Source: Candidatus Jordarchaeia archaeon
GTDB taxonomy: Archaea; Asgardarchaeota; Jordiarchaeia; Jordiarchaeales; Jordiarchaeaceae
DNA length: 35,482 nt
NCBI GenBank assembly: GCA_029856435.1
Contig: JAHQXB010000165.1
Span: 1 to 35,482 of the forward strand
Direction of reading: 5' to 3'
Part shown: positions 4,935 through 12,384 of the stretch, in pieces
How the letters are laid out: each line of letters begins with the position of its first letter
Position numbering within the stretch: position 1 is the first letter of the stretch
Position numbers and translations under genes: made by a program
Notes under the pieces: model-generated
What the model was told of the DNA's origin: nothing
Databases searched by the model: none
What the model saw: the letters and a program-made list of their open reading frames with translations, nothing else

Positions 4935-5035
4935 GGGCACTTAGCTCAGTGGAAGATCCCGCCAAACAAGCGGTATCCAAGAGCGCCTGGTTCGCATCCA
5001 GGAGGCCGCGAGTTCAAATCTCGCAGTGTCCACCA
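4935..5035 (+). tRNA. tRNA-Ala(CGC) with one 26-nt intron at 22/23 (4956-4981)
   Basis: Acceptor GGGCACT/AGTGTCC with G3:U70 Ala determinant; anticodon arm CCTGG-TTCGCAT-CCAGG; T arm GCGAG-TTCAAAT-CTCGC; CCA encoded. Central helix TGGA/TCCA with AG|A bulges; removal gives a 75-nt cloverleaf. Confidence 0.92.
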
Positions 5036-5483: not shown

Positions 5484-5608
5484 TGGTGGACCCAGCGAGA
5501 TTTGAACTCGCGGCCTCCGCGATTTTGGGATAGCTTGCCTTCGCTCTCATACCCTTGTTAGTAGGGTATGGGTAACGCGGCGCTCATACCAGGCTGAGCT
5601 ATGGGCCC
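5484..5608 (-). tRNA. tRNA-Ala(GGC) with two introns: 33/34 (5540-5573, 34 nt) and 37/38 (5523-5535, 13 nt)
   Basis: Acceptor GGGCCCA/TGGGTCC with G3:U70; anticodon stem CCGCG/CGCGG; removing both introns gives loop TT-GGC-AT and a 78-nt tRNA with CCA. Confidence 0.85.
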
Positions 5609-5666: not shown

Positions 5667-5852
5667 TTATTTTAGTCTATTTCCTCTGATTTTTTTGTTT
5701 TGCCAGCTGTATCTTCTAAATCTTTTGGATCTTCCATAGCCGCAAGCTGCACAGTATTTTTTTGTGGCATGGTATGAGTGTTTTCCACATCTTCGGCATC
5801 TTATATGCGTTTTTGTGTCCCTTTTGCCTTTGCTTGGTGTTCCTTTAGTCAT
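5667..5852 (-). CDS. rpl37e: 50S ribosomal protein L37e
   Basis: [11 protein letters not shown]...[14 protein letters not shown]...CAACGYG zinc ribbon; downstream of Sm as in many archaea. Confidence 0.97.
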
Positions 5853-5882
5853 TGCGATCCCTATTATAAGTTATTTTATGTT

Positions 5883-6128
5883 TTATTCTGTTTTTATTCC
5901 AGGACTAAGGAGGATTACGTTGTCTCCTCTCACTATTACGGTTCCTACCTTTTTATTGTTGTCTTTATCTATTACTTCTTCTGCTTCATCTAAAATGAGG
6001 TTCATGTGGAGGTCGAATCCTTTGAGTTTGCCTCTAAGTTCTCGTCCTCCTTTGAGTTTAACGAGTACTCTAGCTTCGAGTGATCTGTTAAGTAGGTCAA
6101 GAGGTTTTGTTATACTTGATTCGCTCAT
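5883..6128 (-). CDS. Sm-like archaeal protein (Lsm/SmAP)
   Basis: Sm1 GKLKGFDLHMNLIL and Sm2 VIVRGDNV motifs. Confidence 0.95.
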   Translation of the reverse strand: MSESSITKPLDLLNRSLEARVLVKLKGGRELRGKLKGFDLHMNLILDEAEEVIDKDNNKKVGTVIVRGDNVILLSPGIKTE

Positions 6129-6468
6129 TACGTTTTTCTCTCCTTTAAAAAATATGTTGTGTATTTTCTGTTGGAATTAGGTTAATATTTAAGTATATCG
6201 GATTACAATCGTCATATCCAAATATGTTTCAATCTTGTTATTCGGATATTATATTCTTTTTGAGTCCAATTTTATAAACACTTGGACTAATATAATACCC
6301 ATGATAATATGCTTTTTGGGGGGGTTAATATCATTTTCCGCAACTTTGAAATATTTAGAGCTTATTATTTTAAGTAAATCATAGTATTTTAGAGAATTTC
6401 ATGTGAAAATAGTAAGTTTGTAATAAGGAGGAGAAAAAGTTTTTAATGTATATGTTGAGGCGGTATTC

Positions 6469-8813: not shown

Positions 8814-9476
8814 CTACTCCTCCTTTAGGGAGTATAAATATTTGTATTTTCTTGTTCTGACAATGTATCCCGCTAGGTCGAAGGCTTTTTTGGCTTTTTG
8901 TAGTATGACTGTGTCGCTAGTGGCCACCACTTGTCCCCTTTTTATGACTGCAATGTCTGCCTGTTTTGCTACTTGTGCGGTGCCTTTTATGCTGTGTTCT
9001 TCCATTTTTTTTCTCGTGAATGCTGCCAGTTCTCCGCTCCTGCTTACCGGGCTGTCGAAGAATACAAGTGTTTCTTTTGGGGGGTTTTGTTTGAGTGTTT
9101 GCATTATTAGGTTGATTGCTTGGTGTGTGTTCTTTGTTATTTTATGTTTGCCAAACACTCCTGCGATATCTCTCACAAATGAGTCGTCAGCGTCAATTAA
9201 GTTTTTTTCTTCTAGCATTGTTTCGAGGACTATGATTACATTGTATGCGTCTACGGTTAGTATTTTGTCTTTGAGGTCTTTGAAGTTTACGGTTTTCTCT
9301 TTTCTTTCTTCTACTTCTTTTTGGCTGTATACTGCTCTGTATAAAATGAAGCGTTCATCTTTTTTTAGTTTATAGTGATCCCCTACAAAGTTTAATGCTC
9401 GGTCTCTGTTATAATTTCTGTTTAGGAGGTATCGCATGTCTTCTGCTGCTTCTAGGACTTTATGGTCAATAAACAT
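8814..9476 (-). CDS. DUF434-type conserved archaeal protein (putative PIN/NYN-like fold)
   Basis: EAAEDMRYLLNRNY...ALNFVGDHYKL..ERFILYR, LTVDAYNVII, FFDSPVSRSGELA, VATSDTVIL; start moved to ATG 9476 (AGAGG upstream) to avoid overlap with alaS. Confidence 0.75.
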   Translation of the reverse strand: MFIDHKVLEAAEDMRYLLNRNYNRDRALNFVGDHYKLKKDERFILYRAVYSQKEVEERKEKTVNFKDLKDKILTVDAYNVIIVLETMLEEKNLIDADDSFVRDIAGVFGKHKITKNTHQAINLIMQTLKQNPPKETLVFFDSPVSRSGELAAFTRKKMEEHSIKGTAQVAKQADIAVIKRGQVVATSDTVILQKAKKAFDLAGYIVRTRKYKYLYSLKEE

Positions 9477-9645
9477 GATGGATCCTCTGCGATTTTTTGA
9501 CCGTTTATTGGAAAACGATTTTTGTTCACATATTTTTATTTTACTAGTGGTTCTAATTAATTGTGTGTTTTCATGCATAAAGTTTTTAGAATTACTCCGC
9601 AATGTTTTAGGTACATTACTGTTGTTCAAGGAAGGTTTGAGAATA

Positions 9646-12384
9646 ATGATTTCCAAAGAGGAGCTGAGGAAAAAGTTTGGTAGAGGAAGCTACGAAGTAG
9701 AATTGTTCAAAAGAGAAGGTTTTGAGAGAAGGCAGTGTAGATCCTGTAATGAATGGTATTGGACGACCAGCAACAATGAATTTTGCGGAGATACAAAGTG
9801 TGTTGGGGGATACAAGTTTATCGGACGTAGAATGGATGGAGGCTGGGATTTTCATGAGGCTGTTAAGAATTGGTGCGACTTCTTTGAGAAGCGTGGACAT
9901 ACGAGGATAAGTGAGTATCCCGTGGTTGCAAGGTGGAGAGATGATATTCCATTCACCATCGCTTCTATTACTGATTTTCAACCATACGTGGTTGAAGGTA
10001 TCGTTGAGCCTCCGGCGAATCCTCTAGTGGTTCCTCAGCCCTGTATAAGGTTCGGTGGCAAAGGATTCAATGATATTGATAACGTTGGGAAGACTGGTAG
10101 GCATCTAAGCCTATTTGTGATGGGCGGCCAGCACGCGTTCAATTATGATGATAAGGGTTACTGGATGGATCGTTGTATTGAACTCAATTTTGAGTTTCTC
10201 ACCAAATGCCTTAAACTGAATCGCGATGAGGTGAGTTATAAGGAGGATGTGTGGGCTGGAGGTGGTAATTTTGGCCCCTGCCTTGAGGCCTTTGGTAGAG
10301 GTTTGGAGATAGTTAATAACGTATTTATGCAATATGCGTTTACTTCAAATGGGACTTGCCGAGAATTGGACATCAAGGTAATCGACGTAGGCTGGGGGGT
10401 TGAGCGAATAGGTTGGTTTACTCAAGGTTCACCTACCATATATGAGGCGGCTTTCGGACCTGTGTTGGATTGGCTAAAGAAGAGTACAGGGGTGTCTGTA
10501 GACGAAGAACTCCTAGAGCGTTATACTGTTCTATCCGGTCTTCTTAACGTGGACGAAGTAGACAATATTGATAAGGCTAGGGGAGACGTAGCCGCAAAAC
10601 TAGGCATTGAAAAGGAAGATTTGCACAAATCTTTAGGTCCTCTGGAAGCATTATATGCTATTTCTGATCACACTCGAACACTTGTTTTTGCAATTGCAGA
10701 TGGGGGAATTCCCTCAAATATTGGAGGAGGCTACAACTTACGTATTATCCTCAGACGGGCTTTAAGCCTAAACGACCTATACAGCTTTGAACTGGACTTC
10801 TTAGAACTCTTCCATAAGCATATTGAATATTTGAAAAAAACTTATAGACGGGTGGAAGCAGCTTCAGATATTATTAATGACATCTTTAATATTGAACGTG
10901 AAAGATATTATCAAACACTGGAGAAGGGCAAAAAATATGTGGAGGGGCTTCTTAAAAGGCAAAAGAAACTGGATTTAGATACTTTAATCGAGCTTTACGA
11001 GTCGAAAGGAATCTCTCCTGAAATGGTGCAAGAAATCGCAGAAAATTTCGATATAAAACTGGAAATCCCGGGAAACTTCTATGTGCAATTAGGTAGCAAA
11101 AAGGAAAAAGTTACTCTTATTACCACCAAGGATACTCTAATGGATGCGTTTAAGGATTTGCCTCCAACTAGAACTCTTTACTATGAGCAGCCCTACCAGA
11201 TGAAGTTTGAAGCTAAAGTCTTGAAGGTTCTAGACTCTATTGTGGTATTAGACCAAACCCTATTCTACCCTACAGGTGGCGGAGCGGTTCACGATACAGG
11301 AAAATTAAACGGATATAGAGTTATTAATGTTGAAAAATTGGGTAACGTAGTAGTACACAGACTGGATAGACCAGCCGAGTTAAAACCATCGCAACGGGTT
11401 AATGGAGAAATAGATTGGAGTAGGAGAATAGCCCTTATGAGACACCATACTGCTACACATATAGTAAATGGTGCCGCTAAGAAGGTTCTTGGTCCACATA
11501 TTTGGCAAGCGGGAGCGGAAAAAACTCCCGAAGGAGCAAGATTAGACATTACCCACTATAAGGCACTAAACACAGAAGAGATTAGAAAAATAGAAAGAAT
11601 CGCAAATGAAGTAGTTATGGAATGTAGACCAGTTACAGCAAAATGGATGCGTAGAGACGAAGCAGAGAAAAAATACGGTTTTCAAATCTATCAGGGAGGG
11701 GTTGTGCCAGGAGGTATAATAAGAATTATCGATATAGAAAACTGGGACACTGAGGCATGTGGAGGTGTTCACCTTAAAAACACAGGGGAAATAGGTCTAA
11801 TTAAGATAAAAGGGGCAGAAAGAATACAGGATGGCGTAGTCAGGATAGAGTTTATTGCAGGTACGCCGGCAATTGATTACTCCCAAGAAACGGATAGCCT
11901 TTTGGAAAAAACAGCAAGCATATTTCGCGTCCCCAAGACTCAATTGCCAAAAGCTGCAGAAAGATTTTTTGAAGAATGGAAACAAAGAGGCAAGGAAATC
12001 GAAAGGCTGCACAGTGAGATAGCAGAAATCGAAGCCACGGAAATTATGAACAAAATGAAGAAATTTGAAGAATACGAATTCATTATAGAAAAAACAAAGT
12101 TAGGCATAGATGAAGCAATAAAGGTCGCAAGTAAAATAACTGAAGAGAAGCCAAACTCTGTGGTGGTACTGGCAAAATCAGATGACAAAGTCGACGTCGT
12201 AGGTATGATAGGAAAATCTGTTAATCTCGACATCAGCGAAATCATTAAAGAAGCTTCAAAAGTTGTGGGAGGAAGCGGAGGTGGGAAAGGTAGACTAGCT
12301 AGGGGAGGCGGACCAAAAACTGAGAAAGTTCAAGAAATGCTAAGCAAGATAGAGAGCCTAATAAAGCAAAATAAAAGGTGGTAA
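9646..12384 (+). CDS. alaS: Alanyl-tRNA synthetase (archaeal type)
   Basis: VVARWRDDIPFTIASITDFQP, DVGWGVERIGW, editing HTATHIVNG and EACGGVH, C-terminal GGGGKG; start trimmed to ATG 9646. Confidence 0.96.
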   Translation: MISKEELRKKFGRGSYEVELFKREGFERRQCRSCNEWYWTTSNNEFCGDTKCVGGYKFIGRRMDGGWDFHEAVKNWCDFFEKRGHTRISEYPVVARWRDDIPFTIASITDFQPYVVEGIVEPPANPLVVPQPCIRFGGKGFNDIDNVGKTGRHLSLFVMGGQHAFNYDDKGYWMDRCIELNFEFLTKCLKLNRDEVSYKEDVWAGGGNFGPCLEAFGRGLEIVNNVFMQYAFTSNGTCRELDIKVIDVGWGVERIGWFTQGSPTIYEAAFGPVLDWLKKSTGVSVDEELLERYTVLSGLLNVDEVDNIDKARGDVAAKLGIEKEDLHKSLGPLEALYAISDHTRTLVFAIADGGIPSNIGGGYNLRIILRRALSLNDLYSFELDFLELFHKHIEYLKKTYRRVEAASDIINDIFNIERERYYQTLEKGKKYVEGLLKRQKKLDLDTLIELYESKGISPEMVQEIAENFDIKLEIPGNFYVQLGSKKEKVTLITTKDTLMDAFKDLPPTRTLYYEQPYQMKFEAKVLKVLDSIVVLDQTLFYPTGGGAVHDTGKLNGYRVINVEKLGNVVVHRLDRPAELKPSQRVNGEIDWSRRIALMRHHTATHIVNGAAKKVLGPHIWQAGAEKTPEGARLDITHYKALNTEEIRKIERIANEVVMECRPVTAKWMRRDEAEKKYGFQIYQGGVVPGGIIRIIDIENWDTEACGGVHLKNTGEIGLIKIKGAERIQDGVVRIEFIAGTPAIDYSQETDSLLEKTASIFRVPKTQLPKAAERFFEEWKQRGKEIERLHSEIAEIEATEIMNKMKKFEEYEFIIEKTKLGIDEAIKVASKITEEKPNSVVVLAKSDDKVDVVGMIGKSVNLDISEIIKEASKVVGGSGGGKGRLARGGGPKTEKVQEMLSKIESLIKQNKRW

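Follow-up and report, generated by a model that had tools for sequence, protein, structure and literature searches.

The stretch of DNA analyzed here (35,482 nt in full length; referred to as the window) contains a genuine tRNA-Ala gene from an Asgard archaeon of the genus Freyarchaeum. The gene is 125 nt long and is read on the minus strand from position 5608 to position 5484. We consider it likely that this is a single functional tRNA-Ala(GGC) gene with two protein-spliced bulge-helix-bulge (BHB) introns in its anticodon loop and a 4-nt exon between them, and that its transcript matures in two rounds. Splicing in the order 33/34 first and then 37/38 is well supported in silico, and the predicted folds indicate that one intron very probably must go and its ends be rejoined before the other can be cut. 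The gene anatomy, its conservation, the mature sequence as read from homologs, the fold energetics, and the presence of the enzymes are documented below; the order and efficiency of splicing in the cell are inferred.

Exon 1 (5574 to 5608, minus strand) corresponds to tRNA positions 1 to 33 and comprises the acceptor 5' strand (GGGCCCA, followed by UA at positions 8 and 9), the D arm (GCUC-AGCCUGGUAU-GAGC), G26, the 5' strand of the anticodon stem (CCGCG, positions 27 to 31), U32, and U33. Intron 1 (5540 to 5573, minus strand) is 34 nt long and lies at position 33/34. Exon 2 (5536 to 5539, minus strand) is a 4-nt mini-exon consisting of G34, G35, C36, and A37, i.e., the anticodon plus A37, and is followed by the 13-nt intron 2 (5523 to 5535, minus strand) at the canonical position 37/38. 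Exon 3 (5484 to 5522, minus strand) supplies U38, the 3' strand of the anticodon stem (CGCGG, positions 39 to 43), the variable loop (AGGCC), the T arm (GCGAG-UUCAAAU-CUCGC), the acceptor 3' strand (UGGGUCC), A73, and an encoded CCA (5486 to 5484). The anticodon loop is split into U32-U33, the 34-nt intron, GGCA, the 13-nt intron, and U38. The Rfam tRNA model RF00005 matched positions 5608 to 5487 with 50.9 bits (E 3e-8) and placed a 52-nt insertion within the anticodon loop. The acceptor stem begins with G1-C72, G2-C71, and G3·U70, and the discriminator base is A73. G3:U70 together with A73 places the gene among those for tRNA-Ala, and G3·U70 is retained in every ortholog examined. The coordinates and helices of the initial annotation all match the sequence as read on the minus strand. 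Specifically, the proposed GGCA mini-exon at 5536 to 5539 between a 34-nt intron at 33/34 and a 13-nt intron at 37/38 was confirmed in the sequence and in homologs; the CGCG/AGCG helix is present with its mismatch (G31·A), as are the 8-bp hairpin CAUACCCU/AGGGUAUG and, at 37/38, the UUGG/CCAA helix followed by the bulge AA|U.

ARAGORN in its default mode called zero tRNAs in the window, and with introns allowed it read the unspliced gene as tRNA-Phe(aaa) with a 47-nt intron. After removal of both introns in silico, the same program returned a tRNA-Ala(ggc) of 78 nt; it also called Ala(ggc) for both partly spliced forms, reporting a 13-nt intron when only intron 1 was taken out and a 34-nt intron at 33/34 when only intron 2 was. 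GGC is the sole alanine anticodon in the 54 nt separating the two strands of the anticodon stem, and an alanine anticodon in a 7-nt loop with U33 is obtained only once both introns are out (loop UUGGCAU). Because the base 5' of GGC is A and not U, there must be an intron at 33/34; with UUGGCAU as the mature loop, the boundaries of intron 1 are unique, and the sequence allows no others. Position 38 is U because the bulge rule and all homologs examined agree on this base. The 38/39 boundary chosen by ARAGORN for intron 2, with A38, was rejected on the same two grounds. The predicted junctions are GCCGCGTTGGCAAGC with intron 1 out and intron 2 kept, GCGAAGGCATCGCGG with intron 2 out and intron 1 kept, and GCCGCGTTGGCATCGCGG in the mature tRNA.

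The mature loop can also be read from relatives that have fewer introns. Both introns are present around GGCA in all six species of the genus, with lengths of 32 to 34 nt and 13 to 14 nt, respectively. In the sister family (three genomes), the 33/34 intron (22 to 23 nt) is the only one and is directly followed by GGCAU-CGCGG, and in other Asgard families, the arm is uninterrupted and reads CGCG-UUGGCAU-CGCG. The relatives with one or zero introns share the loop, and the mature loop is therefore UUGGCAU; the GGCA exon is constant in all nine orthologs of the order. It is extremely unlikely that the gene instead has a single 47-nt intron, the removal of which would leave either the loop UUAAAAU, with the anticodon AAA as in the ARAGORN call for the unspliced gene, or the anticodon ACC by way of a canonical 37/38 cut. 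Beyond that call, which speaks for this reading, neither the AAA nor the ACC version has a BHB motif (ACC forms two of the four central pairs), alanine is specified by G3:U70 and A73, and the homologs with one or zero introns and the loop UUGGCAU contradict it. A34 tRNAs are not normally used in archaea, which bears against AAA as well as ACC. The initial annotation had given ACC as the naive anticodon, which differs from the Phe(AAA) that ARAGORN reads in the unspliced gene; its assignment of the gene to alanine with a hidden GGC is upheld by G3:U70, A73, splicing in silico, and the homologs with the same mature loop.

Two lines of evidence bear on whether this tRNA-Ala(GGC) gene is functional. 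First, a scan of the whole assembly for G3:U70 acceptors identified exactly three alanine tRNA genes, with the anticodons UGC (contig C27), CGC (window positions 4935 to 5035), and GGC, and a second GGC anticodon arm in a tRNA-like context was not found in this assembly, which is 97.8% complete. Seven long ORFs of the window contain 241 alanine codons, of which 115 are GCU or GCC. Second, when six orthologs were aligned, all 42 exon columns were invariant, compared to about 22 variable columns among the 47 of the introns. Among the intron positions that define the splice motifs, 1 of 14 varied, and the varying one is the mismatch position. Differences among species in the acceptor and T stems preserve pairing, with A-U, C-G, or G·U at 7:66 and A-U or G-C at 52:62. 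A decaying or non-functional tRNA pseudogene with insertions that are never correctly removed would fit with the mismatch in the intron-1 central helix, with a strict intron-1 motif that is not the predicted minimum-energy fold (see below), and with a gene that ARAGORN misses in its default mode. We consider such a pseudogene very unlikely, given that this is the sole GGC isoacceptor in a nearly complete genome in which about half of the alanine codons need a GGC tRNA, that the exons are constant over six species while the introns diverge and the motif-defining bases are conserved, and that the acceptor and T-stem differences keep pairing.

The tRNA-Ala(CGC) gene (4935 to 5035, plus strand; Rfam 60.2 bits) is convergent with the GGC gene. 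Its acceptor stem has G3:U70, its anticodon loop reads UUCGCAU, and its D loop contains an insert of ~28 nt. An ORF for alanyl-tRNA synthetase (AlaRS) extends from 9436 to 12384 on the plus strand and matches the Pfam domains tRNA-synt_2c (E 1.6e-108), tRNA_SAD, and DHHA1. The catalytic domain begins at residue 143 of the 982-aa ORF and is preceded by 142 residues; the true start is probably downstream of 9436, e.g., near 9646, as the initial annotation assumed. The AlaRS gene, ~4 kb downstream, forms a small alanine-decoding neighborhood with the CGC and GGC tRNA genes. Elsewhere in the genome, the tRNA-Ala(UGC) gene (G000:C27:15123-15246, minus strand) has a D-loop insertion and a T-loop insertion at about 59/60. 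At G000:C64:10421-10527 (minus strand), where ARAGORN called a tRNA-Leu(taa) with an intron, the loop CUGAUAA is that of a tRNA-Ile(GAU), and the anticodon arm is followed by an insertion. From the entire 3.5-Mb genome, ARAGORN returned only three tRNAs, of which at least one is wrong, and the program is therefore useless for a survey here.

The case for ordered splicing of tRNA-Ala(GGC) starts with the motif for intron 2. Its central helix has the 3' strand CCAA (5525 to 5528, minus strand), which pairs with U32, U33, G34, and G35; the bulge AA|U38 comes next. Once intron 1 has been taken out, the 5-bp anticodon stem extends into UUGG/CCAA with the bulges CA|A on the 5' side and AA|U on the 3' side, and an inner helix of at most 1 bp closes a small loop; this layout is that of a canonical archaeal BHB motif. 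In the primary transcript, the same central helix is split by the 34 nt of intron 1, and when the last two bases of intron 1 substitute for UU, two of the four central pairs form. In four orthologs, the calculated cost of the motif is 9 to 12 kcal/mol in the primary transcript versus 0.3 to 0.9 kcal/mol in the intron-1-less intermediate, of which it is the minimum-energy fold with a probability of 0.25 to 0.58. Computationally, the intron-2 motif is not formable until intron 1 has been removed. In agreement with this, a scan of the precursor with a simple motif scanner returned no motif having the boundaries of intron 2; this scanner produced many false strict matches within the tRNA and missed the true, mismatched intron-1 motif, and it was used solely for this boundary check. 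Within intron 2, CCAAAA is constant in six species, and the remainder is variable.

In the motif for intron 1, the 5' strand of the central helix is C28-G31 (5576 to 5579, minus strand), which belongs to the anticodon stem after maturation. Its partner is AGCG (5542 to 5545, minus strand), which is followed by the 3' bulge AA|G34 (5541 to 5539). Three of the four pairs are formed (C28-G, G29-C, and C30-G, with G31·A as the fourth position), and the bulges UU|A and AA|G34 are correctly placed. The outer helix has 2 bp (C27-G35 and G26-C36), and the inner helix consists of one C-G pair, a C·A mismatch, and then 8 bp, which belong to a hairpin predicted by folding at 5548 to 5570 on the minus strand (CAUACCCU at 5570 to 5563, a loop, and AGGGUAUG at 5555 to 5548). 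[quoted passage not shown] Across the genus, G31 faces A in five species and G in the sixth, and never C, and GCGAA at the 3' end of intron 1, followed by GGCA, is constant in all six.

The strict fold of the intron-1 motif lies 6 to 7 kcal/mol above a slipped register, in which C30-G31-U32-U33 pairs with AGCG (CGUU/AGCG) and the 5' splice site is buried. We regard this predicted slipped pairing as the main weakness of the splicing model. In the sister family, the intron-1 central helix is a perfect CGCG/CGCG in the same register, which validates the register, at a cost of 0.9 to 2 kcal/mol, and the homologs of this family have a complete BHB motif at 33/34. The energetics of the intron-1 motif are unchanged when intron 2 is removed first. 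In the inner stem h' (alignment columns 28 to 37 with 45 to 54, extending two columns past the hairpin), three pairs change on both sides among the six orthologs, two of them within the hairpin. In a register control for the intron-1 stem, 85% of the cells were paired compared to ≤51% with the partners slid. Covariation in the intron-1 helices is weak, as 67 of 500 shuffles did as well; six orthologs are underpowered for this measure, and the register control alone is informative.

The motifs for intron 1 and intron 2 both use bases 27 to 35 and are therefore mutually exclusive, and the order 33/34 before 37/38 would follow because only the intron-1 motif can form in the precursor. In the pathway that we propose, C28-G31 in the primary transcript would bind the 3' end of intron 1 instead of positions 39 to 43, giving a relaxed BHB at 33/34 with the bulges UU|A and AA|G, 3 bp plus G·A, the inner hairpin, and the 2-bp outer helix G26-C36/C27-G35. 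EndA would cleave both intron-1 sites, and RtcB would ligate U33 to G34. The anticodon stem would then form, U32-U33-G34-G35 would pair with CCAA to generate the canonical BHB, and the 13-nt intron at 37/38 would be excised in a second round. Ligation would have to precede the second cut because a free 4-nt GGCA has almost nothing holding it. The split helix and the fold energies in four orthologs support, in silico, the earlier suggestion of ordered splicing with 33/34 before 37/38. A metagenome scan using a pattern for genomic, half-spliced, and spliced copies of the 3' half recovered a single genomic contig only, identical to a known member of the genus.

The genome has two EndA paralogs, each with both Pfam domains, encoded on contig C104 at 1178 to 1756 and on contig C64 at 5764 to 6357. 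One of these is nearest to the catalytic alpha subunit of Aeropyrum pernix. It has a lysine opposite K44 in the specificity loop and agrees with A. pernix in the GIDHAP and SVRKKF motifs; 3ajv_B has Ala in place of the GIDHAP His. We take the His and Lys in GIDHAP and SVRKKF of the A. pernix-like paralog to be the catalytic residues, and the presumed catalytic Tyr is present. The RtcB ligase is present as well (579 bits). The sole RtcB match, at G000:C93:302-1636 (minus strand), contains one in-frame TGA. Judged by sequence, the host has an EndA for relaxed or non-canonical motifs together with RtcB. The EndA specificity loop is conserved in Asgard archaea, confers broad substrate specificity, and permits cleavage of relaxed motifs without one bulge (PMC5829648).

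With an EndA of the relaxed-motif type, a strict order is not deducible from folding alone, and the order in vivo could be less sharp if EndA has relaxed specificity or if the nicked intermediate is cut before it is ligated. Thus, both introns might be real and the order preferred rather than obligatory, with the relaxed EndA cutting the intron-2 site or sites in the precursor or in a nicked intermediate and some molecules losing the 4-nt exon or maturing otherwise. Such flexibility would be in line with a catalytic EndA paralog of the crenarchaeal type that has the specificity-loop lysine, the loop being what allows cleavage of motifs without one bulge (PMC5829648), and with a suboptimal intron-1 motif, such that intron 1 may leave slowly. 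However, the intron-2 helix is split by 34 nt in the precursor at the cost of 9 to 12 kcal/mol, replacement of UU by the last two bases of intron 1 restores two of the four central pairs only, and simultaneous cuts would be unproductive, as the 4-nt exon, anchored by two pairs at most, would come loose. We therefore consider a merely preferred order unlikely and favor removal of the 33/34 intron, and rejoining of its ends, before the 37/38 intron is cut.

The distribution of the two introns suggests how the split loop arose. The 33/34 intron is present in 9 of 11 genomes of the order, covering both families, and the two genomes without a match are 73% and 83% complete. Within the order, the 37/38 intron is limited to this genus, and the sister family is without it. 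This pattern suggests that the 37/38 intron, despite its canonical position, is the younger of the two and was added to a loop already holding the 33/34 intron, a history that is the most parsimonious by one event. Other Asgard families have tRNA-Ala(GGC) genes with canonical 37/38 introns bearing the same CCAA. An ancestral 37/38 intron that was lost in the sister family is slightly less parsimonious than one gain and is a possible alternative history.

The gene also appears to have lost introns. Neither of the T-arm introns (53/54 and 59/60) is present in the clade of four species that includes this genome; both occur in the remaining two species of the genus, and three sister-family genomes (L010, L011, and L013) have two T-arm insertions, the first of which ends in the same CGCGAA|UUC. 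These observations point to a precise loss of both T-arm introns in the four-species clade, with the anticodon-loop introns retained. The ortholog in the complete Freyarchaeum genome (1547141 to 1547326) has four introns of 34, 14, 31, and 29 nt and exons of 35, 4, 16, 6, and 17 nt, and was identified as tRNA-Ala(ggc) when spliced in silico. In this four-intron ortholog, the 59/60 motif likewise seems to depend on the 53/54 intron having been removed first. The coordinates published for the Ala-CGC and Ile-GAT genes of the complete genome delimit exact tRNA genes in the sequence used here. The same complete genome has a tRNA-Ile(GAT) gene (G005:C1:1729004-1729139) with an intron within the anticodon stem at about 30/31, the ends of which (ACCG...CGAA|G) resemble those of intron 1 in the Ala(GGC) gene (ACCC...GCGAA|G). 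The introns may be related, or the demands of the splice motif may have made their ends converge.

Closely spaced multiple introns in crenarchaeal (Thermoproteales) tRNA genes were reportedly described by Sugahara in 2007 and 2008, and ordered splicing was probably first proposed in the 2007 work. The tRNAscan-SE 2.0 paper (PMC8450103) sets out the principle that the next motif forms only after one intron has left. The multi-intron tRNAs of Thermoproteales (PMC8450103) are likewise associated with a broad-specificity endonuclease of the heterotetramer type; Thermoproteales belong to a different phylum, and the gene described here has both of its introns within the 7-nt anticodon loop, with exactly the anticodon and A37 set apart between them.

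Closer relatives provide the nearest precedents. For the complete Freyarchaeum genome (3.58 Mbp), Valentin-Alvarado et al. 2024 (PMC11291895) give 92 to 95% of tRNA genes with introns, which are often non-canonical and often multiple. The preprint by Goswami et al. 2026 (10.64898/2026.10.13.758758) gives 97% of tRNA genes with introns and up to five introns per gene for Freyrarchaeaceae, Jordiarchaeaceae, and Atabeyarchaeaceae. Our gene comes from the same lineage as the interrupted tRNAs of Freyarchaeia/Jordiarchaeia and Atabeyarchaeia, which, in the two sources (PMC11291895; 10.64898/2026.10.13.758758), are 92 to 97% intron-bearing, mostly non-canonical, with up to four or five introns per gene. 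tRNA-Ala(GGC) is absent from the 38 tRNAs of the complete Freyarchaeum genome in Supplementary Data 4 of PMC11291895, and no internal exon that could be derived from that table is shorter than 7 nt, compared to the 4-nt anticodon exon here. In the searchable text of PMC11291895 and of the Goswami 2026 preprint, we found no discussion of splicing order or of the Ala(GGC) gene.

Two more distant systems resemble the Ala(GGC) gene in part. In Cyanidioschyzon merolae, intermediates of pre-tRNA splicing detected by RT-PCR appear in a fixed order, and the anticodon-arm 37/38 motif is always the last to be processed (Soma et al. 2013, PMC3728597). In this eukaryote, however, the motifs fold independently and the order correlates with motif stability, whereas here the second motif would be absent until intron 1 is out and the ends are joined. 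The tri-split tRNA-Gly of Caldivirga maquilingensis has its anticodon on a separate middle piece covering positions 26 to 37, which is joined by BHB motifs (Fujishima 2009, via PMC4090602). The likeness lies in an anticodon carried on a small separate middle piece; in C. maquilingensis, separate genes are joined in trans and the middle piece is ~12 nt, whereas the piece here is 4 nt and is joined in cis. The class of interrupted tRNAs and the principle of ordered splicing have already been published, and neither the kind of gene nor the principle is therefore new. The Ala(GGC) gene is a further example of a published class, and its mechanism is not new.

The analysis provides a correct interpretation of an essential tRNA gene that is overlooked or misread by standard finders, with ARAGORN reporting Phe(AAA). 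The gene is also a clean substrate, supplied by nature, on which dependent two-round splicing of a tRNA could be studied in a close relative of eukaryotes, and it leaves unchanged what is known about how such introns are removed. We consider it improbable that the 4-nt anticodon exon is more than an accident of two adjacent insertions, i.e., that it reflects either a built-in checkpoint or intron gain at the RNA level. If the exon did act as a checkpoint, decoding of approximately half of the alanine codons would hinge on RtcB joining the ends faster than EndA makes the second cut; the gene for RtcB itself appears to be interrupted in this genome. As for gain at the RNA level, CCAA in the younger 37/38 intron complements a UUGG that is not contiguous in the DNA, and a partly spliced intermediate could therefore be where the intron was gained, e.g., by reverse splicing followed by reverse transcription. 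If true, this would bear on how archaeal tRNA introns arrive.
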